Source: Eledone cirrhosa (Eukaryota). Taken from it: a stretch of 64,000 bases of DNA. The stretch covers positions 194,990,001 through 195,054,000 of the forward strand of contig OZ024742.1 of assembly GCA_964016885.1 (NCBI GenBank). The letters run 5' to 3'. Position numbers and translations under genes: made by a program. The stretch's first letter is position 1; each line of letters opens with the position of its first letter. Positions 5,259 to 64,000 of the stretch are shown one piece after another. The notes beneath the pieces are model-generated. The model ran no database searches, was not told the origin of the DNA, and saw only the letters and a list, made by a program, of their open reading frames with translations.

Positions 5259-5563
5259 TACATATATATATAAGCAGAAGGGAAATTCAATTTGTTCGTA
5301 ATTCAACAAATATAAATGTTTATAACTGATTCAGAGCACTCGACAGTTTTCTGGAGTAAATATTCAATGATATTAAATAAATGGGAACTATATTTATAAA
5401 ACCATATTTATTCTATTATATATATTTCAAGGGTACCAAAAAACTTTGGTACGCTTTCATCAGATAAAATACAAAGTGTGTTTTATAAATTTTATCCAAG
5501 GTATACTTCAACTGATAAGGTATGTTCCTTGGCTATGTCAAAATTTATAAAACACATTTTATA

Positions 5564-5622
5564 TTTTATCTGATGAAAGCGTACCAAAGTTTTTTGGAAC
5601 CCTTGAAATATATATAATAGAA
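5564..5622 (+). ncRNA. Hammerhead motif in a PLE pseudo-LTR-type fold-back repeat (mirror copy about 5411-5470 on -; relatives at 60017-60072 +, 60306-60372 -, about 47600-47660 -)
   Basis: UUUUAU-CUGAUGA-long stem II-GAAA-UAUAUA-UA^AUAGAA; the 60306-60372 copy has a perfect 8-bp stem I. Confidence 0.75.
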
Positions 5623-5668
5623 TAAATATGGTTTTATAAATATAGTTTCTATTTATTAGATATCATTG

Positions 5669-5766
<98 letters not shown>

Positions 5767-7039
5767 CCAGGGAGTGTAACGTGAAGTTACTGTAGATTCA
5801 CCCAGGTGAGCACTCGATGTTTAGGTTCACGTCAGTGGCGAGGTGTAGAGCTAGATAGTGTGTATTATTATTATTAAGCCAAGGGTGGTGGATTGGCAGT
5901 ATCGGTAGACGGTCGGACGCCATGCTTTGACGCATAGAGTTACGGCCCTTGCCATTCTGAGTTCAAATCCCGCCGGAATTAACTTTGCCTTTCATCCTTA
6001 CGGGGTCGATAAAATAAAGTACGAGTAATGCACTGGGTAATTGCTGGCCTTGTGGCAAAAGTAGAAACAATTATTATTATTAAGCATTGTGCCAAAAGTA
6101 GAAACCATTATTATTATTAAAATGATTATTATATATATATATATATTTAATATAGAACTAGCTTCTACAGGACTAGAACTGTTTCATTTAGAGAAAATCA
6201 TCAGGAAAGGCTTTCCTTATGATTTCCTTCGAATGAAACAGTTCTAGTCCTGTAGAAGCCATTTCTGTATTAAATATTTATACTCTGCTATGTATTGATA
6301 ACTTGAGTACGTTACTTACCGTGGTAACCCCCGATTGAACCCGGGATAAACATATATATATATATAAGCAAAGGGATAGTTAATTTGTTGGTAATTCAAC
6401 AAATATATATATTTATAACTTATTCGAAGCACTCGACATATTTTCTGGAGTATAATATGAATAATATTAATAAATGGAAACTATATTTATAAAACTATAT
6501 TTATTCTATTATATATATTTCAAGGGTACCAAAGATTTGGTACCCTTGAAATATATATAATAGAATAAATATGGTTTTATAAATATAGTTTCCATTTATT
6601 AATATCATTGATATATATATATATATGAGTCCGGAGTCGATCGGGCGTAACCACAGTATGTAAGGAGTGTATCCAACAAATTTAATAGGGAAATAGTATC
6701 TAAAGGACTTCATTCGAAGGAAATCAGAAATAATTATTTCATTTGAATGAAACAGTTCTAGTTTTACCGAAGCCATTTCTATATTATATGTGTTGTATAT
6801 ATGTATATATATGTATATATATCTCCAAAATGTCTAACTGAATAGGGACGTGTTATTTTCCCCGTTCTTTCCTCTTCTTACTCTTTATATTTCTATTTAT
6901 CTTTTATTTGTTATTCTATCTTCTGATGAAGGACTAATGTCCAAAACGTTAAGACCCTTTTCCTGTTATTTCAAGCGTTAAACTAATATATCTCTTCAAT
7001 GTACTGTGCCATTTGTTTTGTTATTTTAAAAATATATTT

Positions 7040-7570
7040 TTAATATAATTTTTTGTTCACGGCATTGGTGTTTGTATTTATATTTAAATAATTTTTAGAA
7101 TCTAGTTTATTTATGTTAGTCTTATTTTTACCCGGTTTATAATTCAAATTAGTATTATCCAAATATTCAATATTATTTTTATAACCTGCCTTACGTAGCG
7201 CCTCATTATAGTATCCTGCTTCTTCATCAAAAATGGATTTATTACCGGATATTCTAGTTATGCGTTTCTGGACACTATTGACTATTGCATTTTTCACGGA
7301 TTTAGGGTGATTAGAGTAATAGCTAATGTAATTTAAGTTTCCATTGGGCTTATGGAAAGGGTAATAAAATCCTGAGTTTAAGTTAAGGGTGACGTCAAGG
7401 AAATTAACTATTTTAGTACTACTTTCAACTTCTAATTTCTTTCTTCTTAAAGAATTCAATTATAGTGTTCTTAACCCTATTTAGTTCTATATGCTATGCT
7501 TGATAAAAGTAAATAAAATATCGTCCCTATATAAACCACCGGTAATCTCCGGCATTTTTCTGTATTTACC
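7040..7570 (-). mobile_element. Penelope-like RT fragment (Naiad-like)
   Basis: GGLYRDD, then VNFLDVTLNL...YYPFHKPN...YIS..SNHP, homologous to the other PLEs in this window. Confidence 0.8.
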
Positions 7571-7861: not shown

Positions 7862-8907
7862 ATATATATATATATACATAAATTCATTGGATTCTCTAAT
7901 TGCATTTTATATATATATATATATATATATATTATTTATTAGTTTTGCGATTTATTAGTTTTGCGGTAACATAGACAACATAGAAATTAGAATAATATCT
8001 AAACATAGGAATGACAATCAGAGAGGCCAGTGAAATAGAAATTAAAAGACCAAAGCTAAACAGAAAGAATGAGTGGAACAACAACAACACCCAAACAAAC
8101 AACACTGACCTAAGAGAAGTATAAGTAAATTAAATAAAATAAAATAAGATAAATAAATACATACACAAGCACATAAACACACACTAGTCACCCAGCAGAC
8201 ACAACACTATACACACTAGTCACACATCACACATAACACTATACACACACGCAAACGCATGCGCAAAGAAGACAAAATAAAATAAGATAAACAAACAAGC
8301 AAATAAATAAATAAATATATAGACAGACTGAACAAAAAAAAAATGGCGTAGACATACAACACAACAGGAGGAACAATGAATATAACACCACTGACGATGT
8401 TGCAGATGTGCAACGAAAGATTTATGTAAATTATGTAAACTATATATATATGTGTTTGTCTATATTGTATCTGTATTATTTTTGACCGCCGGTCAGTCAA
8501 TGGCAACATTGAGGACCGAGTAAGTTAGATCGCAGATATATATATATAAAAGACAGCGAGAAGCGAAAACCAACCAAACAGTGAGTGTGTTCTGTTATTA
8601 ATTCTGGCAATATTACGCAAATATGACCCTCCCCAAATATAACAATATATATATATATATATATAATAAAGATGAAATAGAAGATGGTTATAAGAGTTAC
8701 ATATATTTTCTTATAACCAGCTTTTATTTCATCTTTATTATATATACTCCAGTTCTACCAACTGTCAAGTGCTACTTATCTGATATATACATAGTTTTAT
8801 TTTTCTACAATATTACTCACCTTCTATATATATATATATAGGAGGTGAGTGATATTGTAGAACAATAAAACTATGCATATATCAGATAAGTAGCACTTGA
8901 TATATAT

Positions 8908-9028
<121 letters not shown>

Positions 9029-9029
9029 A

Positions 9030-9080
<51 letters not shown>

Positions 9081-9085
9081 TATAT

Positions 9086-11572
9086 AAACAATTAAGTTAA
9101 AAATGTACATCTACATATGCATACTGAAATACTAGTGTGTATATGAATACACACACGTATACATATGTAGGTGTACCAAGTCTTTCACTGGATGCTTTAC
9201 TGTGAGCAGCCCAGCTATTCTGTATGTAAACACACAGACAAACCGGTTTTTAGAGTCATACTGGTTTTCGGGGGAACACCTTCCCTCTATTCTCCAGAAA
9301 GCCAGACAAGGAATATTGAACTAGTTTCGTTGTTGTTACAACTCATCAGCAATATTTACCTATCTACCGGCGCTTCTGGAGAATTGTAAAAGCACATATC
9401 GTTATATGCTTTTTCTATGAAAATTAGTAGTGGGCAGACTAATTTGCATAGAGTGTGAGTACGCACCGGTTCAGCGGAGACGATAAAAACAAATAACGAA
9501 ACGAAATTAAATTTCGTTTCGTTTGTAACTCACTTTTGTATGACTGAAGCTTAAACAATTAAGTTAAAAATGTACATCTACATATGCATACTGAAATACT
9601 AGTGTGTATATGAATACACACACGTATACATATGTAGGTGTACCAAGTCTTTCACTGGATGCTTTACTGTGAGCAGCCCAGCTATTCTGTATGTAAACAC
9701 ACAGACAAACCGGTTTTTAGAGTCATACTGGTTTTCGGGGGAACACCTTCCCTCTATTCTCCAGAAAGCCAGACAAGGGATATTGAACTAGTTTCGTTGT
9801 TGTTACAACTCATCAGCAATATTTACCTATCTACCGGCGCTTCTGGAGAATTGTAAAAGCACATATCGTTATATGCTTTTTCTATGAAAATTAGTAGTGG
9901 GCAGACTAATTTGCATAGAGTGTGAGTACGCACCGGTTCAGCGGAGACGATAAAAACAAATAACGAAACGAAATTAAATTTCGTTTCGTTTGTAACTCAC
10001 TTTTGTATGACTGACGCTTAAACAATTAAGTTAAAAATGTACATCTACATATGCATACTGAAATACTAGTGTGTATATGAATACACACACGTATACATAT
10101 GTAGGTGTACCAAGTCTTTCACTGGATGCTTTACTGTGAGCAGCCCAGCTATTCTGTATGTAAACACACAGACAAACCGGTTTTTAGAGTCATACTGGTT
10201 TTCGGGGGAACACCTTCCCTCTATTCTCCAGAAAGCCAGACAAGGAATATTGAACTAGTTTCGTTGTTGTTACAACTCATCAGCAATATTTACCTATCTA
10301 CCGGCGCTTCTGGAGAATTGTAAAAGCACATATCGTTATATGCTTTTTCTATGAAAATTAGTAGTGGGCAGACTAATTTGCATAGAGTGTGAGTACGCAC
10401 CGGTTCAGCGGAGACGATAAAAACAAATAACGAAACGAAATTAAATTTCGTTTCGTTTGTAACTCACTTTTGTATGACTGACGCTTAAACAATTAAGTTA
10501 AAAATGTACATCTACATATGCATACTGAAATACTAGTGTGTATATGAATACACACACGTATACATATGTAGGTGTACCAAGTCTTTCACTGGATGCTTTA
10601 CTGTGAGCAGTAAATTTGTTTTTATCGTTATTTGTTTTTATCGTCTCCGCTGAACCGGTGCGTACTCACACTCTATGCAAATTAGTCTGCCCACTACTAA
10701 TTTTCATAGAAAAAGCATATAACGATATGTGCTTTTACAATTCTCCAGAAGCGCCGGTAGATAGGTAAATATTGCTGATGAGTTGTAACAACAACGAAAC
10801 TAGTTCAATATTCCTTGTCTGGCTTTCTGGAGAATAGAGGGAAGGTGTTCCCCCGAAAACCAGTATGACTCTAAAAACCGGTTTGTCTGTGTGTTTACAT
10901 ACAGAATAGCTGGGCTGCTCACAGTAAAGCATCCAGTGAAAGACTTGGTACACCTACATATGTATACGTGTGTGTATTCATATGCACACTAGTATTTCAG
11001 TATGCATATGTAGATGTACATTTTTAACTTAATTGTTTAAGCGTCAGTCATACAAAAGTGAGTTACAAACGAAACGAAATTTAATTTCGTTTCGTTATTT
11101 GTTTTTATCGTCTCCGCTGAACCGGTGCGTACTCACACTCTATGCAAATTAGTCTGCCCACTACTAATTTTCATAGAAAAAGCATATAACGATATGTGCT
11201 TTTACAATTCTCCAGAAGCGCCGGTAGATAGGTAAATATTGCTGATGAGTTGTAACAACAACGAAACTAGTTCAATATTCCTTGTCTGGCTTTCTGGAGA
11301 ATAGAGGGAAGGTGTTCCCCCGAAAACCAGTATGACTCTAAAAACCGGTTTGTCTGTGTGTTTACATACAGAATAGCTGGGCTGCTCACAGTAAAGCATC
11401 CAGTGAAAGACTTGGTACACCTACATATGTATACGTGTGTGTATTCATATACACACTAGTATTTCAGTATGCATATGTAGATGTACATTTTTAACTTAAC
11501 TGTTTAAGCGTCAGTCATACAAAAGTGAGTTACAAACGAAACGAAATTTAATTTCGTTTCGTTATTTGTTTT
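9086..11572. repeat. Tandem array of a 467-bp hammerhead-containing unit (retrozyme-like array A): about 3.3 units, then about 2 inverted units, flanked by (TA)n
   Basis: Near-identical ORFs recur at 9171/9638/10105 (+) and 10953/11420 (-), period 467; orientation switch at about 10610-10630. Confidence 0.95.
9312..9356 (-). ncRNA. Type I hammerhead ribozyme, array A (also 9779-9823 and 10246-10290 on -, 10768-10812 and 11235-11279 on +)
   Basis: AAUAUUG-CUGAUGA-GUUGU(AACA)ACAAC-GAAA-CUAG-UU^CAAUAUU: 7-bp stem I, 5-bp stem II, palindromic ACUAGU stem III, GUU cleavage triplet. Confidence 0.9.
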
Positions 11573-12024
<452 letters not shown>

Positions 12025-16952: not shown

Positions 16953-17064
16953 GCCATTCTTTCAAGTGTGAAATCAACATGACTTTGTATTTTTGTATCC
17001 CTGTGATTTTTTGGGCGTTTTGTTTAAGTAATATTTTACGGATTAATTCGATATTATAAGAGAT

Positions 17065-17252
17065 AATTGTTTCTACTTTAGGCACAAGGCCAGCAATTAC
17101 CCAGTGCATTACTGGTACTTTATTTTATCGACCCCGTAAGGATGAAAGGCAAAGTCAACCTCGGCGGGATTTGAACTCAGATTGTAAAGGGACGTAACTA
17201 TGCTGGAAAGCATGGCGTCCGACCCTCTACCGATACTGCCAATCTACCGCCC
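17065..17252 (-). mobile_element. Full-length SINE with target-site duplication gatattataagagataat
   Basis: Same family; TSD at about 17050-17067 and 17253-17270. Further copies at about 5883-6080 (+), 36805-36987 (-), 40975-41068 (+, partial), 46285-46727 (-, cluster), 57955-58153 (-); older copies at 1100-1740 (-). Confidence 0.88.
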
Positions 17253-18462: not shown

Positions 18463-18513
<51 letters not shown>

Positions 18514-18517
<4 letters not shown>

Positions 18518-21500
18518 AAACATTCCCGAAAAATCATTTTTTAGACCAAGGCTACAGGACTCACGACACCCGGTAGCATAAACCGATTTTGAAAAACCGA
18601 AAATAATTAACATTTCAAATACAAACCTCTCAGCCCAACAAGTAAAAATTCTCTCCAAAGGTCTGAAATTCACACCAACACCACAATACCCTAACCCCAA
18701 CGAGATAAATGACGATATCTCACACTTCTGTAGAAAATTACGTCTCACAGAGGAATTCTTTGACAAGGAGAATAACGACGAATCAATTGTACGGAATAAA
18801 AGCAGCTACAACCCAACAAAAGGTAGAAACAGAGTTCTGGACAAATTTTGTGACCACATAGCTACCTTCCCATACCATGAACTACCGCAACCTAAACCCA
18901 AACCCAACACGAGTCGAAGGGAATGGGAGATTATCCATGAACTAAAAAACAATACGGACATTATAATTAAGGAAGCGGACAATGGAAGTACTGTTGTCAT
19001 TATGGAGGCTGAAAAATATTAAAATTCTATGTTCTCTCTCTTACAAAATACCAATTACTATGAAAGAGTAAAAAACTACTAGCAATCAAAAATAATGACC
19101 AAATTAAACACACTGATTTATCGATACCAAGAAGACCTAACTAAAAAGGAACGCGATTATTTAACAAATTTTGAATACAAAACCAGCAACCTTTACGGAC
19201 TTCCGAAGATCCACAAGTGTAAAATAATCAACGATGCCTGTAAACAATCCACCTCAGCCTGCGTGAACACACAATACCCCACAGACCTTAAATTAAGACC
19301 AATTGTAGCGGGCCCACAATGTGAAACACACAGATTGAGCAACTTTATAGACATACTACTTAAACCAATACTGAAACACATACCAAGCCTTGTAAGAGAC
19401 GATCTGAACCTCTTAAACCACCTCCCCAAACATGTCAACAACGACACTATTATTGTGTCTTTCGATGTAGTGAATCTCTACACAACGATCCCACACCAAT
19501 ACGGACTAGAAGCAATAGGATTCTGGCTAGAGAAATATCCCAATGAGATACCTGACAGAATAGAAAAAAGCTTCATCACCGAGGGATTAAAATTCATCCT
19601 ACAGAACAACTTTTTTGATTTCGATGGCAATACTTACAAGCAAATATCGGGGACTGCGATGGGTACAAAAGCCAACTTATGCCAACTTAGTCATGGCATA
19701 CTTAGAAGTCCAGATATATGAACAGTCCAAATCAAAATACGGATTGAACTTCCACAAATATTTATCAGAGAATTGGAAACGCTACTTGGATGATTGCCTC
19801 ATTCTTTGGTCCCACACACTCGACCAACTGAAGGATTTCAAAAACTTAATAAACGGCATCAATAACCACTTCCAATTCACAATGGAATACAGCCAAGATC
19901 AACTCCCATTTCAGGACATCTTAATCTTAAAAAAAGACACAAATATCGAAACTGACATACACTACAAACCAACAGACTCCAAACAATATCTGCTATTCAC
20001 CTCCAACCATCCAAAGCACACGAAGACGAACATTCCTTTTAACCTAGCAAGAAGAATTTGCACAATTGTCTCCAATTATGAAACGCGAAATAAAAGACTT
20101 CAAGAATTAAAGGAAATTCTACTCGAGAGAGAGTACCCACTATTACTAATAAATAATGAAATAGAAAGGGCTAAAGCAATAGGCATTGATGAATTACGGA
20201 AACAGAAACAAATTCAAGGTACGTCCAATATTCTATCATATATCTCAACACACAACCCAAGAAATGCGGAAGCTTACAACACTATTCACAATAACATCCC
20301 ACTACTAAAACAAAACCCAAGAATGAAAAAAGCCCTTGAAACACACAAAATAATCAAAAGCAAAAGACAACCAAAATCACTGAAAACATTACTCACCAAT
20401 GCCAAATTACCTACCACAAACCCACAACCAAGTATCAAAAAATGTGGTCGCTCTAATTGTGGAACCTGCACTCACCTCATTGAAGGCAACACGTATACAT
20501 TTAAATCAGGACAAAATTTTACTGTAAAAAATCACTTCACTTGCTCATCAAAAAATCTAGTTTATGCCATTAAATGTAAAGGATGCAATGAAGAGTATAT
20601 AGGACAAACTAAACTCACACTCAGAAACAGAATGACAGTTCATCGCCAACAATTACGAGATCCAACCACGAGACAGATACCACTAAGTGCACATCTAGAC
20701 ATTTGTGCAAGTAATAAGACACCCAAATTCCAAGTCTTCCCATTTTACCTTTGCGCTAACAATACAACAGAACAAATGCGAATAAATAAGGAAAATATGT
20801 TTATTCAAAAATATAGACCAACATTAAATAAGGTTTAATATACATTATGTCAACACCACAATATGACATACACACATAACACCTTCTACTTTAGAAAATA
20901 AAAACCCGAAACTAAATAAACTTTAACATACGTTTGCACTGGCAATACAACAGCAAACACGAAAAAGTAAGGAAAATATGTTCATTCAAAAATATTCCTA
21001 CTAAAGGAATCACTTTCCTACACACACACATACACACACACACAATATATATATATATTCTCTTCATCTTAATATGCTAACCATACTCCCACACACATAA
21101 CACCCATACACACACATAACAACCCCCACACCCACAACGTCCTCCCCATTTCTACTAATAGAACCACTTTCCTACACACATATATATACACACACAAAAT
21201 ATATATTCTCTCCATCTTAACATACACGCACACACACACATAACACCCATATACACACACACACAACTCCCTCCCCCATTTCTACTAATAGAATCATCTT
21301 CCAATACACACATACACACACACACATACACACACACAAGCACACAAATAAACATACATATCTTCACTTCAATAGAAAATCTTAACTCTGACACCCCAGC
21401 GAACTAACCATATTCACTGAACCAGAACAATCCCTTTTCTCTTGACCACTATCTGTCCATTGTCATAACATTCGCTATAAAGAATAGTTTTCCAAATAAG

Positions 21501-25602: not shown

Positions 25603-27779
25603 AGGAAAATGTTTAACCCCGACGGCAGAGCTATTAATAAGGAAGCTAAATAATTAGCTAGTTTTTTTAAAATAGACAATAGAACAGAAAAACTTTCTAA
25701 ACGTAATGCCTATATCACCCTCAAAGATCGCAAACCTGATTTTATTAATCGTCCTAGTTGTAGATTAATCAACCCTGTTAAGACTGAAATCGGTCTTGCT
25801 AGCAAAAAAATATTAAATAATATAAACAAACATATTAGAAGTAAGTCTGAATTACTCCAATAGATAAATAGCTCTTCCGTAGTACATTGGTTTAATAATA
25901 TTTAAGATAAAAATAGTTCTAGATTCACCCAATTTGACATTGTAGACTTCTACCCGTCTATTACTGACCCTCTTTTAACGAAAGCCTTAAATTTCGCTAG
26001 AAAGTTATATCAATATTTCTGATATTGAAGAGAATGTCATTTTGCATGCTAGAAACACTTTACTATTTACTAATAATGACACTTGGGTAATAAAATCTAA
26101 CACAGAGAACACATTCGATGTCTCAATGGGTTCTTTTGACAGTGCTGACGTATGTGATTTAGTCGGCCTATTCCTCCTACACACACTTAAAGAGATATTC
26201 CCTAACGATACCTTTGGGCTTTATCGCGATGATGGTCTAATTCTTTCCCATACCACTATAAGCCATAACTTAGATAGATTCAGGAAAGACTTAATAAAAA
26301 CCTTCGCTAGTTTTAATCTTAAAATTACCATTGTCACTAACCTTTCTAATGTTAATTTTTTAGATATAAACCTAGATCTGCCTACTGCTTCTTATAAACC
26401 GTACCATAAACCTAATGAAAATTTAAAATATATAAATAAAGGCTCTTGCCATCCTCCTATAGTTTTTTAAAATCTTATCCCTAATATTAGCCGTAGGATC
26501 TCCACCCTCCCTTCCTCAGAAACTATTTTCAATAAGGCATCCCCTACTATAATAAAGCCCTTCAAAATAGCGGATTTAGCGAACCGATTAAGTACATACC
26601 CAACAATACTAACTCCTTTAAACGTAATAATAGGAAAAGAAAAAAAATCTGGTTACCCCCCCCCCCTACTTTTTAGCAGTTAAAACTAATGTAGGCAAAA
26701 CATTCCTAGAGCTCTTAGATAAACATTTCCCTAGAACACATAGATACTAGAAGATTTTCAATAGAAACTCTGTCAAGATCAGCTACTCCTGCGGTCCCGC
26801 TATTAAATCTTATATTCTCAATAAGAAAATACCCAGAAAACATCAACATTGCTCCTGTAGAGTCAAAAGTGAATGCCCATGACAAGGTAAATGCAACACC
26901 AAAGCCATTATATATGCAGCTAAAGTGACAACCACCAGGAACAACCTACCAGCCACCAGCGAACGATATGTGGGTATGGCACAAGACCAATTCAAAACGC
27001 GTTATTACTCATGTCGCATCTTTCCGACATCCTGAAAAAAGATTCACAACAGCTCTGGCTAGCAGCATATGGGATTTGAAAGACCAAGGTATCCAATATA
27101 AATTAGATTGGTCAATTTTGAACCAATCTAAAGAACATGCAAGAGGAACAAGAAGATGTGCACTCTGCATAAGAGAAAAATATTGGATTTTACAGAACCT
27201 TAAATCACCAAAAACCTGCCTAAATGCAAAAACAGAAATTTTCATCAGTTGCCCACACATGAAATCACACTTGCTTTCCAGCTCATATAAACTTAACTCA
27301 CTTTCAGATACTTATCCTCCATAAACTCTTGTTCTTCACTTTCCTTAAATTACCCTCTTTACAGACTTCTCATTCTGATTTACTTTTATTTTTATTTTTA
27401 ACTTTATTTTTACTTCACATCCACCAGTGACCCCCCACCCCCACCTGCTTTTTTATTCACTTACTTTATATCTTCACAATTTTACATATTTTACTTCCCC
27501 CTTTTCTTTCACTGCCTGATATCACATGTCACTTGCGTTTTCATCTCCAGATATATTCTGTTGTCCCTCAGCCGCTTTTAATTATGTTTACTTGTGTATA
27601 ATTTGTACTCATTTATTCATACGGCTGGTTTTATATTGTGTGTATGCGTGTAAGTGTGCACGTGTGTGTATACGTGTTTGTATACGAATGCATTCGTATG
27701 TGCGCGTGTATGTGTATATGTGTGTGTGTATGTGTATTTTTATATCTATGTTTTTTACATACTTATATATATGTGTGTG

Positions 27780-34445: not shown

Positions 34446-34700
34446 GCGCGCACGCATCTCTCTCTATATATAAATATATATAAATATATATGAAAAGATT
34501 CAAGGCCCCGATGGCTGACCTCCGCCCGTTTCGACAGCTAGATCCGAACAGTTCGGTGTGTGTGTGTGTGTGTGTGGACTTTTACTTTTGTATTTTCTTA
34601 GATCCCTTGTAGGAAATCATGTGTTGAAACAGATATCTTTGCACCTTGGGGAATGTTAATACTACTAATTAAAACCACGCACACCAATTGAGTTACATTT

Positions 34701-35627
34701 TGGCAGTATCGGTAGAGGGTCGGACGCCATGCTTTGCAGCAAAGAGTTACGGCCCTTTACGATCTGAGTTCAAATCCCGTCGAGGTTAACTTTGCCTTTC
34801 ATCCTTACGGGGTCGATAAAATAAAGTACCAGTAATACACTGGGATAATTGCTGGCCTTGTGCCTAAAGTAGAAACAATTATTAGTTAGAAGGTTGACTT
34901 TGCCTTTCATCCTTACGGGGTCGATAAAATAAAGTACCAGTAATGCACTGGGTAATTGCTGGCCTTGTGCCTAAAGTAGAAACAATTATTTGTTAGGTAA
35001 CTGGGGCGGTGGATTGGCAGTATCGGTAGAGGGTCGGACGCCATACTTTGACGTATAGAGTTACGGCCCTTGCCATTCTGAGTTCAAATCCCGCCGAGGT
35101 TCACTTTGCCTTTCATCCTTACGGGATCGATAAAATAAAGTACCAGTAATGCACTGGTAAATTGCTGGCCTTGTGCCAAACGTAGAAACAATTATTAGTT
35201 AGGTAACTAAGGCGGTGAATTGGTGGTATCGGTAGAGAGTCGGATGCCATTATTTGCATCATCTAAGTTCATATCCCTCCGAGCTTGACTTTGCCTTTCA
35301 TCCTTACGGGGTCAATAAAATAAAGTACCAGTCACGCACTGGAGTCGATTTAATCGACTTTCCCCTCCTCCAAAATTGCTGGCCTTGTGCCTATATAAGA
35401 AACCATTATCAGTTAGGTAAAGGGTGGTGGATTGGCAGTATTGGTAGAGGGTCGGACGCCATGCTTTGACGTATAGAGTTACGGCCCTTGCCATTCTGAG
35501 TTCAAATCCCACCGAGGTCAACTTTGTCTTTCATCCTTACGGGGTCGATAAAATAAAGTACCAGTAATGTACTGGGTAATCGCTGGCCTTGTGCCAAAAA
35601 GTAAAAAGAATTATTAGTTAGGTAACT
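34701..35627 (+). mobile_element. Head-to-tail cluster of about five tRNA-derived SINE copies (Nin/Deu-like core)
   Basis: A-box-like TGGCAGTATCGG, B-box GAGTTCAAATCC, core GCCTTTCATCCTTACGGGGTCGATAAAATAAAGTACCAG, (TTA)n tail. Confidence 0.85.
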
Positions 35628-36650: not shown

Positions 36651-39600
36651 GATATACACACACATATATATATATATATATACATATTCATTAGTTAAGC
36701 AAAACAAGACCACAAATTTCACAAGGAAGACATTATTAAAAGATTATCAACATAATTTAGTTTGATGTAAGGAATGTAGAGAATAATAATAATAATATTA
36801 ATAATAATTGTTTCTACTTTTGGCACAAGGCCAGCAATAATCCCAGTGCATCACTGGTACTTTATTTTATCAACCCCGTAAGGATGAAAGGTAAAGTCAA
36901 CCTCGGCGGGATTTGAACTCAGATCGTAAAGGGACGTAACTATGCTGGAAAGCATGGCGTCCGACCCTCTACTGATACTGCCAATCCAATATAATGTTCC
37001 ATATATTGGTTTTTTACTATGGTGTCATGGTTGCATCAGTTGTCAGCCATAATCAAACAGTATTCATCTGTCGAGGCTGCATTGTGTGAGATCTACCTAT
37101 GGGTAACAAGATGGCTGCCAAAGGACATATTTACCTTACTAATTAGAGGGTGGTTTCAGGGGAAGTAACTCCTCGAGAGATTAGAAATTTTTTAACTTTT
37201 TAATTGAGAGACAATGTAACTTATAATTATCTAAGTTGTTCATAGCAATTTAACTTATTAGCTACAAGTAAACATGGGGCTAGATGACTATGTTGGGTCA
37301 AATATTCTATTGGCCAAGGAATTAGCCCTTCGATGTTGACAGCTAATAGTTAGCTCCGTTCTATCGTTAATCGGTAGAGGTCGTGATAGAGTTATGTAAT
37401 ATGCTTCTGTAATACAGAGATCACAAGATTTTCTTCGTCCATTGAAGGGTTGGGCGCTAGCCACGATATCCCATTTTTGTTAGTGTTGAACGTTGTTTAA
37501 TTTAAGGTTTTTAATTAGCCTAGCTAGCGATGTCGAACATCTGTTGCTAGGGTCTCTGAAGGAAAAAGAGTGCGCGTTATAGCGTACCTTAAAAGGGTTA
37601 GAGGTAGACCCGATATAAGAGCTGGTATTCGAAGCAGTTTTAACCGTGCACCTATAGACTATGTTGGGGGTCAGGCAGTGTCCATTTAATGGGCATGCAT
37701 TGGGGTAACGGCAGTTGCAGTTGCTTCTGCGGTTAGTGAGAGTAGGGGAGTTTAACCTAAGCGGTAGGTCCGTGCTGGAAGGATTAGATGGGGTAGGTGT
37801 GCTACTAGAGTAATTATTGGTGTAGTGGCGTGGTGTATTTGATAAGGGTGGAGGTACTGCGGTGTGGGAGTTATACTGTCTTAGCTTATGATGGTTATTG
37901 AATGTGATGTGGCTAGCTAGGTTAGGTGTTGTGGAGAATGAGATTTTAATGTTATTTTTATTAAAGAGTTTGTAATATCTATGGTTGGGGTGTAAATGTT
38001 TAGATAGGATAGAGAAGAAGCGTTTGGGGATATTAGTGGCTAGATTAGATGAGAATGGGGGGTTAAGCCAGGTGATATTTCTAGGTCTATTCCTTCTAGG
38101 GGTTCTAGTGGAGTTGGTAGGGGCCTTCCTAGGGTTGTTATTACCTGGGGATTTGTTATTTGTCATCCCATTTCTCATTACTATTCTAGGGTTGATTTTT
38201 AGTTTGCTACTTGGAGTGGGGAGCAGGCCGCTGCCACCATTAAAGTTCCCTTTATAGGTGCTGTTACTGCCAAAATTCCGGCGAATCTGGCTATATGCTA
38301 AGGTATTTCTAGTTCTAATGTTAAGTTTATTATGGTGAATTGCTGTGTTATGGCATTTAGGTATGTAATAAATTGATTGTTCATAACCAGATTCAGAAAG
38401 AGCCTTATTATAATATTGTGCATGGTTTATAAATATCTGCTCATTTGCTGATAGCATTGAGATCCTATACGAGATAGATTTGATTACTACTCTGATGACT
38501 ACCGGTGGGTGGTTAGAGTGTGGGCTAATATATGTGAGTATTTCACCTGGTTTATGGTAAGGGTAATATAGGTTATTGTTGAGATCCAGGGTGACGTGTG
38601 GATGGATTTGCATCTGGATAGATTTACCCACCCTTATGTACCAACAACCCCAAGGTTCTCTCTCAAGTATCATAAGCCAAACTTTATAGAGAACCCATCT
38701 ATTAGACTTATAAGCCCAACCACATCTGACCTGGGCCGCATCAGTAAGAACATCCTTGATAGGATAATCCCTGGGCTACGGGATGATACGACCTACAAGT
38801 TGTAGTCCAACACCGGCCAAGTCATTAGATGGTTCTCCGATCTAAGGTCCAAGCAATCTATGCGGTTCATCCAATTTGACATAGACAGCTATTACGCGTC
38901 AATAACCACGGAACTGCTCAACAAAGCATTAACCCTAGCCAGCACCAACTCAGACATAACCAATAATGAGATTAACATCATACTTATGGCTAGGCAGACT
39001 ATCATTGAATTCAACGGAGCACTCTGGACTAGAAAAGATAGAACAGACAACTTTGACATTACGATGGGCTCAAGTGACTCCGCGCAAATCACCGATTTAG
39101 TTGGCATTTACCTATTACATAACATCAGAGCCGAAATCCAACCCTTGCAAGGCGGAATATACAGTGACGACGCCTATTTGCAGTCCACAATTGCACTAAT
39201 CGGGGAATCGATTTGCTAAAAAAAACAATTACATAGATTCTTTAAAAATAACGGTCTCTCTATCACCATCGAGCCGAACCATAAAGTAGTAAACTTCCTA
39301 GACGTCACCCTGGATCTCAACAATAACCTATATTACCCTTACCATAAACCAGGTGAAATACTCACATATATTAGCCCACACTCTAACCACCCACCGGCAG
39401 TCATCAGAGCAGTAATCAAATCTATCTCGTATAGGATCTCAATGCTATCAGCAAATGAGCAGATATTTATAAACCATGCACAATATTATAATAAGGCTCT
39501 TTCTGAATCTGGTTATGAACAATCAATTTATTACATACCTAAATGTCATAACACAGGAATTCACCATAATAAACTTAACACTAGAACTAGAAATACCTTA

Positions 39601-41072
39601 GAATATAGCCAGATTCGCCGGAATTTAGCAGTAACACTACCTATACAGTGAACTTTAATGGTGGCAGCGGCCTGCTCCCCACTCCGAGTAGCAAACTAAA
39701 AATCAACCCTAGAATAAGAATGAGAAATGGGATGACAAATCCCCAGGTAATAACAACTCTAGGAAGGCCCCTACCAACTCCACTAGAACCCCTAGAAGGA
39801 ATAGACCTAGAAATATCACCTGGCTTAACCCCCCATTCTCATCTAATCTAACCACTAATATCCCCAAACGCTTCTTCTCTATCCTACCTAAACCCCCCCC
39901 CCCCCCACCATAGATATTAAAAACTCTTTAATAAAAATAACATTAAAACCTCATTCTCCACAACACCTAACCTAACTAGCCACATCGCATTCAGTAACCA
40001 TCATAAGCTAAGACAGTATAACTCCCACACCGCGGTACCACCACCCCTATCAAATACACCACGCCACTACACCAATAATTACTCTAGTAGCACACCTACC
40101 CCATCTAATCCTTCTAGCACGGACCTACCGCTTAGGTTAAACTACCCTACTTTCACTAACCGCAGAAGCAACTGCAACTGCCGTTACCCCAATGCATGCC
40201 CATTAAATGGACACTGCCTGACACCCAACATAGTCTATAGGTGCACGGTTAAAACTGCTTCGCATACCAACTCTTATATCGGGTCTACCTCTAACCCTTT
40301 TAAGGTACGCTATAACGCGCACTCTTTTTCCTTCAGAGACCCTAGTAACAGATGTTCGACATCGCTAGCTAGGCTAATTAAAAACCTTAAATTAAACAAC
40401 GTTCAACACTAACAAAAATGGGATATCGTGGCTAGCGCCCAACCGTTCAATGGATGAAGAAAATCTTGTGATCTCTGTAGTACAGAAGCATATTACATAA
40501 CTCTATCACGACCTCTACCGATTAACGATAGAACAGAGCTAACTATTAGCTGTCAACATCGAAAGGCTAATTCCTTCGCCGCCTATAGAATATTTGACCC
40601 AACTTAGTCATCTAGCCCCATGTTTACTTGTAGCTAATAAGTTAAATTGCTATGAACAACTTAGATAATTATAAGTTACCACCCCTACATTGTCTCTCAA
40701 TTAAATTTTTTTTTAATTAGTACTTAACTATAAACAGCCACAATTTCTAACCTCTCGAGGAGTTACTTCCCCTGAAACCACCCTCTAATTAGTAAGGTAA
40801 ATATGTCCTTTGGCAGCCATCTTGTTACCCATAGGTAGATCTCACACAATGCAGCCTCGACAGATGAATACTGCTTGATATGGCTGACAACTGATGTAAC
40901 CATGACACCATAGTAAAAAACCAATATATGGAACATTATATTATGTAACATTCTCTCATTATTTTAATTTATATAACTTTGCCTTTCATCCTTACGGGGT
41001 CGATAAAATAAGTACCAGTAATGCACTGGGTAATTGCTGGCCTTGTTCCTAACGTAGAAACAATTATTTTAA

Positions 41073-41192: not shown

Positions 41193-41276
41193 GGACATTA
41201 TTATTATTAATATTATTATTATTATTCTCTACATTCCTTACATCAAACTAAAATATGTTGACAATCTTTTAATAAT

Positions 41277-41462
41277 TGTTTCTACTTTAGGCACAAGGCC
41301 AGCAATAACCCAGTGCATTACTGGTACTTTATTTTATCGACCCCGTAAGGATGAAAGGCAAAGTCAACCTCGGCGGGATTTGAACTCAGATCGTAAAGGG
41401 ACGTAACTATGCTGGAAAGCATGGCGTCCGACCCTCTACCGATACTGCCAATCCACCGCCAA
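41277..41462 (-). mobile_element. Full-length SINE with about 17-bp target-site duplication, inserted into the PLE 3' end
   Basis: tgacaatcttttaataa at 41260-41276 and 41463-41479. Confidence 0.88.
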
Positions 41463-42429: not shown

Positions 42430-42518
42430 CTACACAACTTCACCTGTATCTATATCAATGGAAAGACGAGAAAAGTACAAAAGTTATAGCAAAGAAGACA
42501 CTAATCCTAACGACTTAC

Positions 42519-44042
42519 CTTGCTGAGTCTGTTCAAAACGTACGTAAAATCCTCTTCCATGTCCTTTGCTATCAGAGCGGAAAATAAACTTCAAATGGTC
42601 GGTGCCGAGGACCATGGGTGGTGGTAATTTCCTACCGGTGTAACGACGAAAGAAGCGTCCTTTGCTGCCATCAAAGAATGCGATCTCTAGAACATCTTTG
42701 TTAAATTCTAAATCTAAATCTTCAAACGTCACTTTGATACGATAACCAGGAGGAATCTGTACGTCCCACTGACAATGTTCGGAACTAGCATACGCATAAG
42801 GATAGCCTCGGTTGACAATCACCCCGTCGTTTGTCATTAATTTCATACTACATGAAGTTTGAGAATGATTTATAAAAATACCGAAATTATTGTCATTGTA
42901 AACGAATCGTGTCGTTTCTTTATGTGTGCTATCTTCAGCCATTTTCTTCGAGGACATATTATTTTCTGTTGTATTGTACGAAACATTACTATGTTTTAAA
43001 TTCCATATATTTGAAAGTGTTGGTGATACCATAGATATATTGACTTGACTAGATATATTAGTATTATTAAAATAGGTAAAGCTGTCGTTGCCATTAGGTT
43101 TCATCGAGTTTTTTAACAGCTTGGAGATCGTTGTTGCCGTTGGTGCTGTAGTAGAGGTGGTAGGCGTTGTTGATGTTGTAGTAGAGGTTGTGGATATTAC
43201 GGATGCTGTTGGTTTTGCAGTAGACGTTGTACGTGCTCTGGATGTTAACGATGATGATAATGATGATTGTGGTGGTGGTGATGGTGGTTGTGGTGGTGGT
43301 GGTGGTGATGATGATGATGATGATGATGATGATGAGGAGGAGGAGGAGGAGGAGGAGGAGGAGGAGGAGGAGGAGGAGGAGGAGACGGAGGTGGAGGGTG
43401 TTGATGATGATGATAATGATGATAAAGATGGTGACAATAATGATGATGGTGATGTTGATGATGCTAAAGATTGTATTGATGGTGATTGTATTGATGATGA
43501 TGATGATGATGATGAAGAAGAAGACGATAATGATGGTGATGGTGATGGGGATGATGGTGGTGACGTTAACGATGAAGATGATGATGATGAAGACGATAAT
43601 GATGGCGATGGTGATGCTGATGCTGATGATGGTGATGACGTTAACGATGAAGATGATGATGATGATGATGTCCACCAAGGTATCATTATCAATGACGATG
43701 AAACCAATGATGGCGATTGAGTACGTACGACGGCGGTAACGGGATAGAAAACGCTTCTTCTCGATTGTTCTGTCATTGCCAATCCTGTCCTTCTTGCTAA
43801 TAACGACGATGTTATTGTCATTGCTTTTGTTATTTCCATCGTTGCTGTTGTTGATATTGATATTGCTGCTCGTGGCCGTGGTGGTGGTAGAGGTTGTAGT
43901 TGCAGTGGTTGTAGTGGTAGCAGTGCTTGTAGCGGTGGTTTGACATCATTAGCAAACAAGCTATCCTGCGAGTTGTCATCATTCATCCTCAAATCGCTAC
44001 GAAACCATGCGGCAGATGAACTAAGATTTTTTGAGTAATTGC
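42519..44042 (-). CDS. Coding exon 2: Ser/Pro/Thr-rich low-complexity stalk plus complete CUB domain 1
   Basis: Acceptor ttctttctag|GC at 44043/44042; frame open for 1524 nt; CUB signature C...GYPYAY...CQWDVQIPPGYRIKVTFEDLDLE...D.LEI...FRSDSKGHGRGFYVRF; donor G|GTAAGT at 42519. Confidence 0.9.
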
Positions 44043-44057
44043 CTAGAAAGAATCACA

Positions 44058-46280: not shown

Positions 46281-47389
46281 AATAATTCTTTCTACTTTTG
46301 GCACAAGGCCAGAAATCACCCAGTACATTACTGGTACTTTATTTTATCGACTCCGTAAGGATGAAAGACAAAGTTAACCTCGGCGTTTTGATTTACACAC
46401 AAGGCCAGAGATTTTAGGGGAGGGGTAAACCGAGTTAACCTTGGTGGGATTTGAACTCAGACCATAAAGGGCCGTAACTCTTTACTGCAAAGCATGGCGT
46501 CCGACCCTCTACCGATACTGCCAAATGATAATAATAATAATAATAATAATAATTGTTTCTTCTTAGGTACAAGACCAGTAAATTACTGGTACTTTATTTT
46601 ATCGACCCCGTAAGGATGAAAGGCAAAGTTAACCTCGGCGGGATTTGAACTCAGACTGTAAAGGGACGTAACTATGCTAGAAAGCATGGCGTCCAACCCT
46701 CTACCGATACTGCCAATTCACCGCCCTTAATAATAATAATAATAATATATATAAATATATATATAAATATGTATATATATATATGTATACATATATATGT
46801 ATATATTTATTTTTGAGATTCGAAACCGATTCGGTAAAGGTAACTATAGTAAGTAAAGTCAATTTTTTAAAATTTATTTTGAAACTTTTTCATTATTTGC
46901 TAAACCCTGATTATATATGTTCTGGCTCGTTAATTTATTAACCTGCCATTGAACCACCTTGGCATATGGTTGGACAATACATGTGTCCCTTAGCGCTTTG
47001 TGCGTGTAAGAACACATATCCTATTATTACTATACTCCTCTATGTTGAGAAAAAATTTGGTCGTTCCTGCTGCTAGTGATAGTGGTGGCCGATTGACCTA
47101 CCTCCCTCTACTTCTATCTTTACTTTCGGCCCTTGAAAAAATTGATTCCACTTCATTTACTCTCATCTCGGGAACAGTTTTGGATAGCGCTAGTTCGTAA
47201 TTTAAATTCAATAATTTTATATTCTTCGAATGAAAAGAACCTTCTGACGAGAATCTTTCTTTGCAACGAAGGCCGTATGGTCTCCGTTTATTTTGAGATT
47301 CGAAACCGATTCGGTAAAGGTAACTATAGTAAGTAAAGTCAGTTTTTTTAAATTTATTTTGAAACTTTTTCTTTATTTGCTAAACCCTG

Positions 47390-49245: not shown

Positions 49246-50084
49246 TACGTAGCAGTTGCAAGAGCGAGAGGGATTGTCCTGATGAGTACCAGTTCAGTTC
49301 GAAATGCATCGACGATTATCCCTCTTGCTTCTGCTGGACACCGTCAGGAGGCGGTGGCAGCAAGTGATTTTGCATAGCTACGTCTTTCTAAATGTTTAAT
49401 TATAAACCTACCGTATTTCTTTAGAAACACGAAAATCCATTACACACATATATATATATATAGGTTTATCCCGGGTTCAATCGGGGGTAACCACAGTAAG
49501 TAAGGTACTCAATACATAGCAGAGTATACATATTCAATATAGAATTGTCTTCTACAGGGCTAGAACTGATTCATTCGGGAGAAATCATCAGGAAGCCCTC
49601 ATGATATATATATACGTACATATAGAGAAGTACGCCAGTAGCCGAAGTGTATCATAACATATCTGTATGTATAAATCAGAGTGTGTAATCGAGACTGAAT
49701 CAACGTGTATAAATATATACATATATCTGATATGTAGGTATGTAAACATGTCAGAAAATACGACTTTCCCTGTAGATTGAAAAATGATAAACATCTTTAA
49801 TCAATTTTCATATCTAAATGGACCCTCATCAGAAGAAGTGTATATCATCCATTTCAGAAAAATACTAAGAGCTAATGGGTGTATAAACCCATCAAATATA
49901 TGGTCGACTAAATTTTTATACTGTTGTGCCCCATTATGGCCGCAGTATGATGATTGAATCCACTCCCAGTGGTTTAACCGCGCGGTACATGTATATACAT
50001 ACATACATACATACATACATACATACATACATACATACATACATACATACATACATACATACATACATACATACATACATACAT

Positions 50085-53000
50085 ACGAGGCTGAAATTCA
50101 TACATACATACAACGAGGCTGAAATTCATGACTCTACTGAAATTCATGACTCTACTGAACAAACAGAGCACCAAAAACTTGTGGGCACCCTACAAGTGAT
50201 ATGGAACGATATGTTTCAAGAGATACACAGCCTTAATGTGAGTGACAGACCATACAACACTAGAGTCAGTAAAGAACCCACTAAATTGGAATTGGAAGCG
50301 GTGAACGAAATAGCTGGCAATTATCTGAAGGCTATACGATCTAAAGGTGTAGAAACGACATTTGAAACGCTTAATGTTTTGTTATATGTTTCAGCTGTCA
50401 CATTGCTATCATATAACACACATCTAAAACCACGCAATCAAGATACAAACAGAAAGCCTGAACCAGCGTGGATGCGAAATTTAAAAACCAAAATTTTGTC
50501 CCTGAGACGAAGTATCTCACACATCGCAGTCGTTATGAAATGCAACATAGAGAGCAACTTCACACAACACCAGGAAGACCTAAAGAAAAAGTTAGAGAGA
50601 CGATTTGGAGATACAAAATTTAAAACTTTGAACTCCAAATTACACCAGTTGAAACAACAACTCACAGCTACAACAGAAAGACTAAAATATAAGTCAACAG
50701 CACATAAACGACATGTGCTAAATAGATTGTTTGCCAGAGATCCTAAATCAGTTTATCGCAGCTTCGGTGGCAAAAGCCCAATCCCTGTAAACGAGACCCC
50801 TTCAAAAGAACAGGTTGAGAGCTACTGGAGATCTGTATGGGAAACGGATGACGGATTCAACAGACAAGCTAATTGGCTAAAAGAACTGGAACAGGACTAC
50901 TGCCAACATGTCCAGACAAAACAATATGACATAGATGGGTCAATACTGGAAACAGCTCTACAGAAAATGTCGAATAGGAAATCACCAGGCCCAGACCTCA
51001 TTACAGGATACTGGTTGAAGAATTTCACTTTCTATCGGCAAGATCTCATACGGCTGTTTACAGAAACCATTAAGGGCACACAAGAACTGCCCAGATGGTT
51101 ATCAACTGCCACTACTCTCCTCATTCCCAAAAATAGCCAAACCACCCTTGCTAAAAATTACCGCCCAATTGCCTGCCAAAACATCATGTATAAATTATAT
51201 ACTGGGTGCCTTAACCTGTTCTTACAGGATCACTGTGCTACCAACAACATCATAACACCTGAGCAAGATGGTGGAAAGAGGGAGGTGTGGGGTTGCATAG
51301 ATCACCTACTAACTAACAAAATGATTCAGGAAAAAACAACAAAGAATCGCAGAAACATGACTGTCGTGTGGCTGGACAATCAAAAAGCATTTGATAGTGT
51401 ACCTCATGGGTGGATTATTAAGGCTTTACAGTTAGCTAAAGTCCCACAACCATTCGTAGCTGCTGTTGAACGCCTGACCAAGAACTGGTACACCAATTTG
51501 ATCCTTAGAGGTGAGAAGGAGCAAGTTAAGACTGATAAGATACATTACCAGAAGGGCATCTTTCAGGGTGATAGCTTGTCAGTGCTACTCTTCGTTCACT
51601 CACTGAATCCACTATCTTACCTACTCAGGAATCAAGGTGGACAAAGAAGTGGGCCCAGAAGTATCTCCCATCTTTTCTTTGTTGATGACCTGAAGTTGTA
51701 TGGGCCAAATATCAATGACATCAAGAAACAATTGGACCTCATTACACAATTTTCAACCGACATCAAAATGAAATTTGGTGAGTCCAAGTGTGCATATTTG
51801 GCAGTAAAACGTGGAAGAGTTGTGCCCTCCTCTAGAAATCTAGAGATGAACGGCCTGACAATACAACCTCTGCAGTCAGGTGACAACTACAAATATCTTG
51901 GACAGGATGAGAATGTCAGATATGATGGACCCATAAATAAGGAGAGAACCAGAACTGAATACCTCAGAAGAGTAAAGAAAATATGGTCATCAGAACTGTC
52001 AGCATACAACAAATACATTGCCCACAATACTTATGCTGTGCCAATTCTAACGCCAACATTTGGCCTGCTGAACTGGTCATTGCAAGAACTAAGTGAGATG
52101 GATGTTAGAACTCGAAAACTTCTCAGTGTTACTGGCAACTTTAACATCAATGGTGATGTGGATAGGCTATACTTCTCACGCAAGGAAGGTGGCCGGCGTC
52201 TAAAATCAATATTAACAACATATGAGACCCGGATAGTAACACTGAAGCAACACCTTCAACAAAGGAAAAAAGTTGGCAACCATCTTGCCCAGGTTTATGA
52301 GCATGAAAAAAGAAATATCATTAGAATAGCGACTGATCTGGAGGAGAGACATGGAATAAAGCCTGATATAAATCTCTCACCCAGAGAAATCGGAAGATCC
52401 TATTCAATGTTCAAACAAGATAAGAAAATTGACCAATTTACAGAAAAAGTTGTGCATGGATACTTGAGGCGTAAAACACAGACCATTGAGGGGATAAACC
52501 ACTCAAAAAGCCTGGCATGGAGTTCCGACAAGTTTATGACATCACACCTTGAGGGATATCTCTATGCAATACAGGAACAAGAACTTCCTACCAAATATCT
52601 GCTGCACAAAAGAGGAGGGCCAGCAGCTGACAATAAATGTAAGCTATGTAAAACAAAGATCGAGGATGTAAGCCACATTGTTGCCAGCTGCGAAAGAATG
52701 TCATCTCGCTACTACCTCCCCATGAGACACGATGGGATAGCTAGAACCATCTGGAACGCACTTCGGAAAACAAAATTAACAACAAACGAGGAAGAATATA
52801 TTGAGACAGATGGCACTAAGGAATACTGGTGGAACCTGAAAATAAAAACTGCCACCAAATTAAAGCACAACCGGCCTGATATTGTAGTTTGGGACCACAC
52901 ATTGAAAACGTGTTCTGTTGTGGAGATCAGCTGCCCACTTGATGTAAACGTTGTCAGAAAAATACAGGAGAAGGAGGACATCTACGGACCATTGATGAGG

Positions 53001-53303
53001 AGTTTACAAATCCAGTATCCAAGATACACCTTTAGCTTCATACCCATCATTATTGGTGCTACGGGTTATATACCAACCCGCTTGGACCAAAGTATGACTG
53101 AACTTGGATTTGCGGACAAAAAGCGCAGCTCCCTAATTCATAGTCTGCAAATAGCTGCGATAGCTGGCACCTTCAAAATTTGCAAAACATTCTTGCGATT
53201 CAAGGGATGACAATTTCTTTTCTTTTACAACCTTGCCACCAGGAAGGTGGCCGGTCAAAAAAATATACTCGAAATTAAGAGAAAGAGAAAACATACATAC
53301 ATA
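50085..53303 (+). mobile_element. Non-LTR retrotransposon with C-terminal restriction-like endonuclease (R4/Dong-like), single long ORF, probably 5'-truncated
   Basis: KSPGPD, LIPK, NYRPIAC, KAFDSV, GIFQGDSLS, LFFVDD; CKLC...HIVASC zinc knuckle; RHD; RPDIV...EISCP endonuclease; stop at 53210; (TACA)n at both ends. The first ~55 aa of the listed ORF are microsatellite read-through. Confidence 0.92.
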
Positions 53304-56958: not shown

Positions 56959-58301
56959 CTCACCTCACACTCTCTGAAAGGACAATGCCTTTGAATTCTT
57001 GTAAATTCTTTTAAATTCATTTGAAACCTAATGTATCGACACACCCTTGTTTTCGTCTTTAGTGACACACACATCCACCCCGCCACCCAAAAGGAATGTT
57101 GTAAACTTAGATATATTATGAATGAATAAAAGAGCGGTTAAACAAGGTTTGAAAATAGGTCCATATTTTTCAAGATCTCGGGCGTCCTCAGATCCCATGT
57201 AGCTGACGTCCGCAAAATCCGAATTACAGCAGCCTGTCTGAGGAAGGAGCCCAGCGAGGTATGGTGGCTGTGGCAGCGTGTGACACTAGCCATTGTTCAC
57301 GGCAACGCCTTTGCCATATTGTCCACGAGCCGTAGCCGAAAAACCAATCTGACTTAAGTGTAAGGTCTGTCATCTTCTCCCCTTCCCCCTCTCTTTTGTT
57401 GCTTAATAATCCCTGCCCCTTTTCTCCTTTTCCTCTCATTTATAGTCTTTTGCAATGTTACTTTCTTTTTCTTTGATTAATTTCTATTGATTTGTTTCTT
57501 TTGAATATTTTATATTCATTATATACCTGCCAACCTCAAAAACCCCAAATGGGAGCACCATGAAAAAGAATATCCGAAAACGGGGTGTGTGTGTGGGGGT
57601 GGGGGGTTTACAAAATGAAAGCTATACCAATTTTCACAAGGGAAGACATCCCTCAACCACCCCAAAGTGTTTGGAAGATCTCCCCGTCCGACAGGAGAAT
57701 TGACAGGTCTGATATATATTACATAAATTGTGTTTATATGTACAATTTTGAATAAATAATAATTTTAATAAACTGATCCCGTGTAATTTGAATTTCACAT
57801 CTATTTCTAGCAATATATGTGATGATGTACAAGATCCCTAAATGGCACCCCTAGATTTGTCATTTTGGATCCATTATAGGGATGACCCAGCGGGACACTG
57901 AACTTTTTTGGTGGAACCATTTCTTATCAGAAATAAATATCCATAAAATATTGATTTCTACTATAGGCACGAAGCCAGTAATTTGGTGGGAGGGGAAAGT
58001 CGATTAAATCGCCCCCAGTACGTTACTGGTACTTTATTTTATCGACCCCGTAAGGATGAAAGTCAAAGTCAAAGTCAACCTCGGCGGGATTTGAATTAAG
58101 ACCGTAAAGGACAGTAACTGCAAAGCATATCCGACTCTCTACCAATACTGCCAAGAAAATATTACCCTAAAAACTTGCTTGTAGAAGTTTTTGATTTATA
58201 AAACTGTATCCATCATTCACAATCGAGTATGACTTGGTAGCATGCATATTGCTTTCGCTACGGGTTTAAGTTATCCATACAGTCGCTAGTGGACACAGAC
58301 A

Positions 58302-61250: not shown

Positions 61251-64000
<2,750 letters not shown>

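Follow-up and report, generated by a model that had tools for sequence, protein, structure and literature searches.

Two tandem arrays in a 64-kb stretch of cephalopod DNA (the window) carry in each complete unit a hairpin with a perfect octamer in its 5' arm. We lean towards a dual-coded reading of this hairpin, in which it is a stem in the RNA and its 5' arm would double as a POU/Oct enhancer site for transcription of the array by RNA polymerase II. The reading is held jointly with the view that the unit is a non-autonomous, Penelope-dependent retrozyme, and the two together are given the same cautious preference. Retrozymes as a class, their link to Penelope-like elements (PLEs) and one hammerhead repeat with an snRNA-type promoter are already known. 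Neither a cephalopod retrozyme nor a promoter motif lying within a retrozyme stem was found described in the literature searched, which took in few subscription journals; the available text of PMC8557442 mentions both octopus and the hammerhead ribozyme.

Anatomy of the arrays

The features are listed in Table 1. The two arms of array A meet at a short duplication (10611-10624), and the right arm ends 68 nt past the 3' end of the left arm, as a tail of the Penelope type. In array B the 3' end, in RNA sense, lies at the apex of H9 as it does in array A, again adjoining a (TA)n tract (61252-61354). Hammerheads number 3 + 2 in the two arms of array A and six in array B. That of unit A is predicted to cut between 9319 and 9318 and scores 38.6 bits (E 3.5e-8) against the Rfam family Hammerhead_HH9, whose gathering score of 52 it does not reach. 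The hammerhead of unit B scores 18.5 bits (E 0.1) against the same family, also below the gathering score, and would be weak if taken alone. At gathering level nothing in the window matches Rfam, and miRNA-like Rfam matches on the AT-rich stem were discarded as matches of composition. The units hold no ORF of at least 120 aa except for frames that cross the (TA)n tracts. A family variant at 9319 changes the cleavage triplet from GUU to GUC; it is carried by 186 of 527 first-mate-plus reads of the RAD run and amounts to 2% of X1 depth.

Metazoan non-LTR retrozymes are described, in the available text of Cervera and de la Pena (2020; PMC7229834), as tandem non-coding units of low GC content, each with a type I hammerhead and with a highly self-paired predicted monomer. 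The present units share all of these traits: the type I hammerhead recurs in at least two consecutive units, the 466-467 bp are non-coding and lack features of the LTR type, and the monomer is highly self-paired. They are longer than the approximately 170-400 nt given there for metazoan retrozymes, among which the mollusc (mussel) units measure 350-390 bp. Circular RNA and cleavage have been demonstrated for those retrozymes; the hammerhead here is a predicted one. Neither a promoter nor a helix-level fold shared across subfamilies is described in the available text of that paper, and octopus does not appear in it.

The insertion anatomy is that of PLEs, for which partial tandems, an adjacent inverted 5'-truncated copy, a tail at one end and microsatellite targets are described in the accessible part of Craig et al. 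(2021; PMC8557442). Array A has the inverted 5'-truncated copy, the one-sided tail and the microsatellite target, and B shows one end only. The short palindromic helix III is a further likeness to PLEs and their pseudo-LTRs (pLTRs), as far as the consulted portions of the pLTR work go (Cervera and de la Pena 2014, PMC4209133; Li et al. 2026, bioRxiv 10.64898/2026.07.22.740005). The differences are the missing ORF, the tail of 68 nt compared with 30-40 bp, and the lack of a matching autonomous pLTR within the window. As tandem hammerhead units, (TA)n flanks and an inverted arm match both the PLE insertion anatomy and the description of retrozymes, the unit is, judged by its anatomy, a non-LTR retrozyme with a predicted hammerhead. 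Non-LTR retrozymes have been proposed to be non-autonomous derivatives of PLEs (Li et al. 2026, in the portion available).

Within the window no autonomous element sharing the sequence of the unit was found. The same genome does hold a PLE of the autonomous type, without a link in sequence to the unit: a broken, frameshifted PLE reading frame at 18582-20838 (+) encodes a reverse transcriptase (RT), a CxxxxCxxC motif and, at its C terminus, a GIY-YIG domain, and is preceded by (TA)n at 18467-18514. Its layout is Neptune/Nematis-like, and it is a candidate for the type of helper concerned. Pattern scans found no relatives of the unit in viral contigs, in metagenomes (hammerhead pattern) or in prokaryote genomes. 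A looser hairpin pattern hit at least 117 metagenome loci; a hammerhead lay downstream in 0 of 117, the one weak BLAST match (36 nt) covered the pattern itself, and the hits were dismissed as chance.

The inverted arm of array A both starts and stops in one U-rich single-stranded linker (10611-10630, 11562-11574) beside the conserved TTTATCGT, possibly a site of priming or of template jumping. The copies of array B (61354-64000) fall into types with a partial three-unit period, in which copy 2 equals 5, 3 equals 6 and 4 is intermediate; this suggests a multimeric template or a later duplication.

Table 1. Positions of the arrays, hammerheads, hairpins and conserved blocks in the window
Feature	Position	Strand	Remarks
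(TA)n tract left of array A	8900..9086	.	insertion target, inferred
Array A, left arm	9085..10610	-	3.3 units of 467 bp; RNA-sense 3' end is the apex of helix H9, adjoining (TA)n
Array A, inverted right arm	10625..11574	+	2 units + 16 nt
(TA)n tract right of array A	11576..12022	.	
Array B	61353..64000	-	at least 5.7 units of 466 bp; continues past the end of the window
Extended type I hammerhead, unit A	9296..9367	-	CUGAUGA 9349-9343, GAAA, short palindromic stem III
Hammerhead, unit B	61583..61645	-	predicted cut between 61601 and 61600
Octamer hairpin (helix H13), unit A	9415..9451	-	13-nt arms, 11-nt spacer, one C.U mismatch (9446/9420)
Perfect octamer ATGCAAAT, in the 5' arm of the hairpin	9442..9449	-	candidate POU/Oct DNA site; identical in B; function inferred
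ATGAAAAT, which on the hammerhead strand is the hairpin's 3' arm	9417..9424	+	partner of the octamer arm
Further unit A hairpins, left arm (core arms)	9883-9917, 10350-10384	-	
Further unit A hairpins, inverted right arm (core arms)	10674-10708, 11141-11175	+	
Octamer hairpin, unit B	61685..61720	-	arms 61685-61695 and 61710-61720, 14-nt spacer
Further unit B hairpins	at 62151, 62617, 63083, 63549	-	
ACC(A)GTATG-N3/4-TAAA block	9247..9265 (A), 61533-61550 (B)	-	sole PSE-like lead; position fits, score no better than chance
TTTATCGT	9480..9487	-	8 nt, unchanged between A and B; in the linker preceding helix H12, close to the two ends of the inverted arm
TGTTTACA	9225..9232	-	unchanged between A and B; forms the apex of helix H6, with a UUUA loop

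A common RNA fold

For the comparison of helices, units A and B were opened at the hammerhead site and folded in circular form; both show the same order of about 14 helices on the hammerhead strand. Their sequences are about 67% identical over 436 aligned columns, a figure inflated by the optimisation of gaps. Folding compared with shuffles gives z -9.8 for A and z -6.9 for B. In nine helices other than the octamer stem, aligned by hand from the folds, 33 of 51 pairs are identical and a further 16 have changed on both sides and still pair. A covariance model made from a 152-nt domain of A detects B on the same strand with an E of about 1e-6.

Variants were collected from four of 24 candidate public runs, mapped on one unit, with runs of small share left out: contigs and a RAD run under the best-matching organism label, and two runs under other labels, which also contain pieces covering the hairpin and one tandem junction. 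The summed contig depth in X1 is very high, a figure not equal to copy number. There are 81 variable places in total, and the analysis rests on 40 of these. In the minus-strand fold 23 of the 40 fall at paired sites: at 18 a single change leaves the pair intact (G.U type), three are compensated and two break it. Pairing is therefore kept at 21 of 23 sites on the hammerhead strand, compared with 11 of 23 on the other strand, where 12 break. In a strict test limited to confident pairs, pairing survives 11 of 13 transitions (null 0.53, p 0.018); the two transversions at such pairs compensate each other in stem II of the hammerhead. Where copies of B differ at paired positions, pairing is kept in all four cases. 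The helices shared by A and B, the covariation and the strand-specific pairing of variants thus support selection on the RNA fold of the hammerhead strand.

The octamer hairpin

In unit A the inverted repeat at 9415-9451 reads CTATGAAAATTAG-N11-CTAATTTGCATAG, as the initial annotation described it, with the octamer ATTTGCAT at 9442-9449. As helix H13 it has a mean pair probability of 0.98 and z -5.0 on the minus strand. The arms in unit B are present where they had been placed (61686-61720), except that the hairpin begins one base earlier than was claimed; the octamer of B is at 61712-61719. The perfect octamer and the single mismatch were said to be retained in both units and indeed are, the C.U mismatch being the same in A and B. 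The loops have the letters CTGC-CA in common, and the spacing of the half-sites differs, at 17 bp in A and 18 bp in B. All 10 complete copies, five in each array, have the hairpin. Ten of the 14 octamers in the window lie inside these hairpins; the other four, near the 6.2 expected by chance, are never within a hairpin of this kind. On the hammerhead strand the 3' end of the octamer is 123 nt (A) or 111 nt (B) upstream of the predicted cut, in agreement with the earlier estimate of about 110-125 nt. Seventeen other CTGANGA sites in the window, some of them unconfirmed as hammerheads, have no octamer-like site within 260 nt upstream.

The octamer arm sits in one stem of the common fold, so ATGAAAAT is most simply its pairing partner. 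A protein-binding RNA hairpin had been offered by the initial annotation as a fallback, and the hairpin part of it is supported: the hairpin is one stem of a fold spanning A and B, and both variants listed for the stem, which change A-U to G.U in the octamer arm, keep the pairing. The variant at 9443 breaks the octamer and keeps a G.U pair; it makes up about 1.1% of X1 depth and occurs in one X8 contig. Its share is taken from X1, the figure from the RAD run being inflated by library cuts at AATT sites. RAD read ends at 9425, 9441 and 9508-9510 also fall at AATT sites and are library cuts rather than RNA ends.

Conservation of the stem

The comparison of conservation rests on two independent full-length units. 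The longest run identical in A and B is the octamer arm, at 12 nt, compared with 9 nt for the hammerhead boxes. All 11 positions of the octamer stem are identical, against 33 of 51 in the other helices (Fisher p 0.015, uncorrected); the stem was picked post hoc, and allowing for ten helices raises p to about 0.15. A perfect octamer turned up in 92 of 3000 dinucleotide shuffles of unit A and in 201 of 3000 of unit B. Of the 460 8-mers in A, 16 recur unchanged at the aligned place in B, and nine of these are within the hairpin. The joint chance of a perfect octamer in a block identical in A and B is roughly 0.03 x 0.035 = 0.001. In a consensus of loose ends (176 RAD reads with their anchor at 9459) the octamer is kept and its flanks differ, which suggests a third subfamily in which the octamer has been retained.

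The stem could be an ordinary A/U-rich one that has stayed unchanged between A and B by happenstance. An alignment permutation gives two identical runs of at least 11 with P = 0.11, so the arms as runs alone are not significant; nor is the lack of common variants in the 37-nt hairpin (0 of 26 listed, 2.1 expected, P 0.12), and helix H10 is likewise fully identical, in 5 of 5 pairs. The contrast of the stem with the other helices, the likely third subfamily that retains the octamer despite its changed flanks and the coincidence of the conserved block with a perfect octamer all speak against happenstance, which we consider improbable.

A stronger competitor, possible though well short of preferred, would confine the site to RNA: a hairpin with a C.U mismatch recognised by the Penelope protein, a ligase or a host RNP protein, in which the octamer would be coincidental. 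Conservation is equally strong in the 3' arm, in the mismatch and in the octamer, which an octamer acting in DNA does not by itself account for, and closing the mismatch would gain 6.7 kcal/mol. The shared letters of the loop, the stem variants that keep pairing even where one breaks the octamer, and the variable half-site spacing agree with a role in RNA. A further point against the dual-coded reading is that H5, H10, TGTTTACA and TTTATCGT are also nearly or fully identical without any octamer. This explanation nevertheless needs a perfect octamer to have arisen by chance in the most conserved block, at the joint chance just given, and none of the curated Rfam families matches the hairpin.

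The converse, a dyad acting in DNA as two inverted POU-type sites or as a cruciform and without a role in RNA, is very improbable. The inverted repeat is present in the DNA, and one published paper contains ATGAAAAT alongside Oct-1 and the octamer. Variants are, however, tolerated as G.U on one strand only, which is a signature of RNA, and the spacing differs from A to B. The known dimer sites of POU proteins are far more compact. A POU dimer site was rated low.

On the dual-coded reading, the letters of the stem are held more tightly than pairing requires, and the likeliest cause is a second use of the 5' arm, as a DNA site; this DNA role is the plausible and preferred reason for the extra conservation of sequence.

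Is there an snRNA-type promoter?

It had been proposed that each unit may carry its own promoter, possibly of the snRNA type. The part of this claim that stands is a plausible DNA role for the octamer; the snRNA-type part is unsupported, no PSE above chance having been found with two vertebrate consensus motifs. The best scores were reached by 178, 168, 187 and 45 of 200 shuffles, to be read with the caution that the host is a mollusc and its own PSE may differ from these motifs. No description of a molluscan PSE was found in the literature searched.

The complete form of such a promoter, as in newt satellite 2, would be a special case of the dual-coded reading and is rather doubtful. The octamer would be the DSE, a PSE would lie about 160-180 nt downstream, and SNAPc would recruit Pol II to a start in the next unit, about 50-130 nt past the cut on its 3' side. 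The accessible text of PMC9652321 places the DSE at -250 to -170 and the PSE at -70 to -40 relative to the start. What matters for a DSE is its distance from the start, which lies 170-250 bp downstream of it and so in the next unit, and not how far the octamer is from the cleavage site. By sequence only, a perfect octamer of the DSE kind is present, and the ACC(A)GTATG block, 176 nt (A) or 161 nt (B) downstream of the octamer of the previous unit, fits the DSE/PSE spacing. The left arm has its 5' end (10610, position 110 of the monomer) inside the start zone predicted from that spacing, but the 5' end of the right arm (position 287) falls outside it, and one match in the zone has a chance of about 17%. 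The block also overlaps the 5' arm of helix H5, and in unit A an extra base is inserted inside its CC-GT core; such a core is read by SNAPc in human U6 (PMC9652321, in the part available), the register being our own reading. An OCT-like element and a PSE motif have been predicted, by likeness of sequence, in a flatworm U6 promoter (PMC5460494). Compared with the vertebrate snRNA promoters covered by the available portions of PMC9652321, PMC3958870 and PMC2235858, the units have the perfect octamer and a weakly PSE-like block at a fitting distance; they differ in that the promoter would sit inside a repeat and in the chance level of the PSE match.

An internal Pol III promoter, as in the schistosome-type satellite, is unlikely. 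No A or B box is common to units A and B when scanned with consensus motifs, and each unit has four runs of T4-5, which together point to Pol II.

Animal retrozymes are reported to be strongly transcribed. In newt satellite 2, Coats, Zhang and Epstein reportedly showed in 1994 that an octamer plus a PSE is functional. The available text of PMC2220036 assigns newt satellite II an internal snRNA promoter and cites internal promoters for only two animal retrozymes, those of newt and schistosome. Like the present arrays, newt satellite 2 is a hammerhead tandem repeat for which an internal Pol II promoter is proposed, with an octamer inside the unit. The arrays differ in their mollusc host, in the placing of the octamer in a conserved RNA stem and in having no PSE above chance. 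In PLEs the start site and an internal promoter lie in the pLTR, according to the parts of the PLE literature at hand.

Proposed mechanism

Under the dual-coded reading, tandem copies would be transcribed on the hammerhead strand, with the octamer arm serving as DNA, a POU/Oct enhancer site that would help RNA polymerase II to start within the array, in the next unit. The transcript would be cut into 467-nt monomers by the hammerhead, acting, to judge from its anatomy, as a dimer, and the monomers would probably be circularised. Each monomer would take up the conserved branched fold, for which the covariation and the variants provide support, and the inverted ATGAAAAT would exist mainly for pairing with the octamer arm. 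To judge from the inverted arm, the tail and the target, a Penelope-like reverse transcriptase/GIY-YIG protein would then insert the copies into (TA)n.

The surrounding DNA

The window is AT-rich animal DNA, rich in microsatellites and pieces of retroelements. Putative further hammerhead-like cores belong to several other repeat families (4295, 5463, 5570, 8391, 12110, 13252, 15678, 15927, 32304, 49279, 60022 and 60364). Some form inverted pairs, and 5357-5676 is a palindrome with one core on each strand; these putatively resemble the PLE pseudo-LTR remnants that have been described. RT-like and PLE-like fragments occur at 7040-7459, 25991-27324 and 37480-40412, and an inverted pair (36988-38597 and 39302-40942) is 94% identical. 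An open frame of 1107 codons at 49887-53210 (+) with RVT_1 and zf-RVT domains is a non-LTR retrotransposon. A frame rich in Ser, Thr and Pro at 42484-44052 (-) ends in a CUB domain and has its best match in an Octopus sinensis protein, at 75% identity over 128 aa (two matches among 51 candidates), so the host is probably an octopod. A dispersed repeat of about 190 bp and SINE-like size is present in many copies of 80-98% identity (5883-6076, 17063-17252, 34700-35616, 36802-36988, 41270-41460, 46540-46743 and 58014-58154).

Significance

In the PLE literature examined, no definition was found of the RNA features that Penelope enzymes recognise. The present family of retrozymes offers a mapped fold and shared insertion ends, and in its octamer stem the roles in DNA and in RNA are separable by compensated mutations. 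The boldest reading is an octopod retrozyme with its own snRNA-type promoter, in which an octamer and a PSE peculiar to the lineage would be encoded within the stems of the conserved fold of about 14 helices. A POU factor would read the hairpin as DNA, and the machinery of retrotransposition would read it as RNA. We think this unlikely, but were it true, the solution of newt satellite 2 would have been reached in a mollusc as well, which would suggest that hammerhead repeats repeatedly borrow the transcription machinery of snRNA genes.
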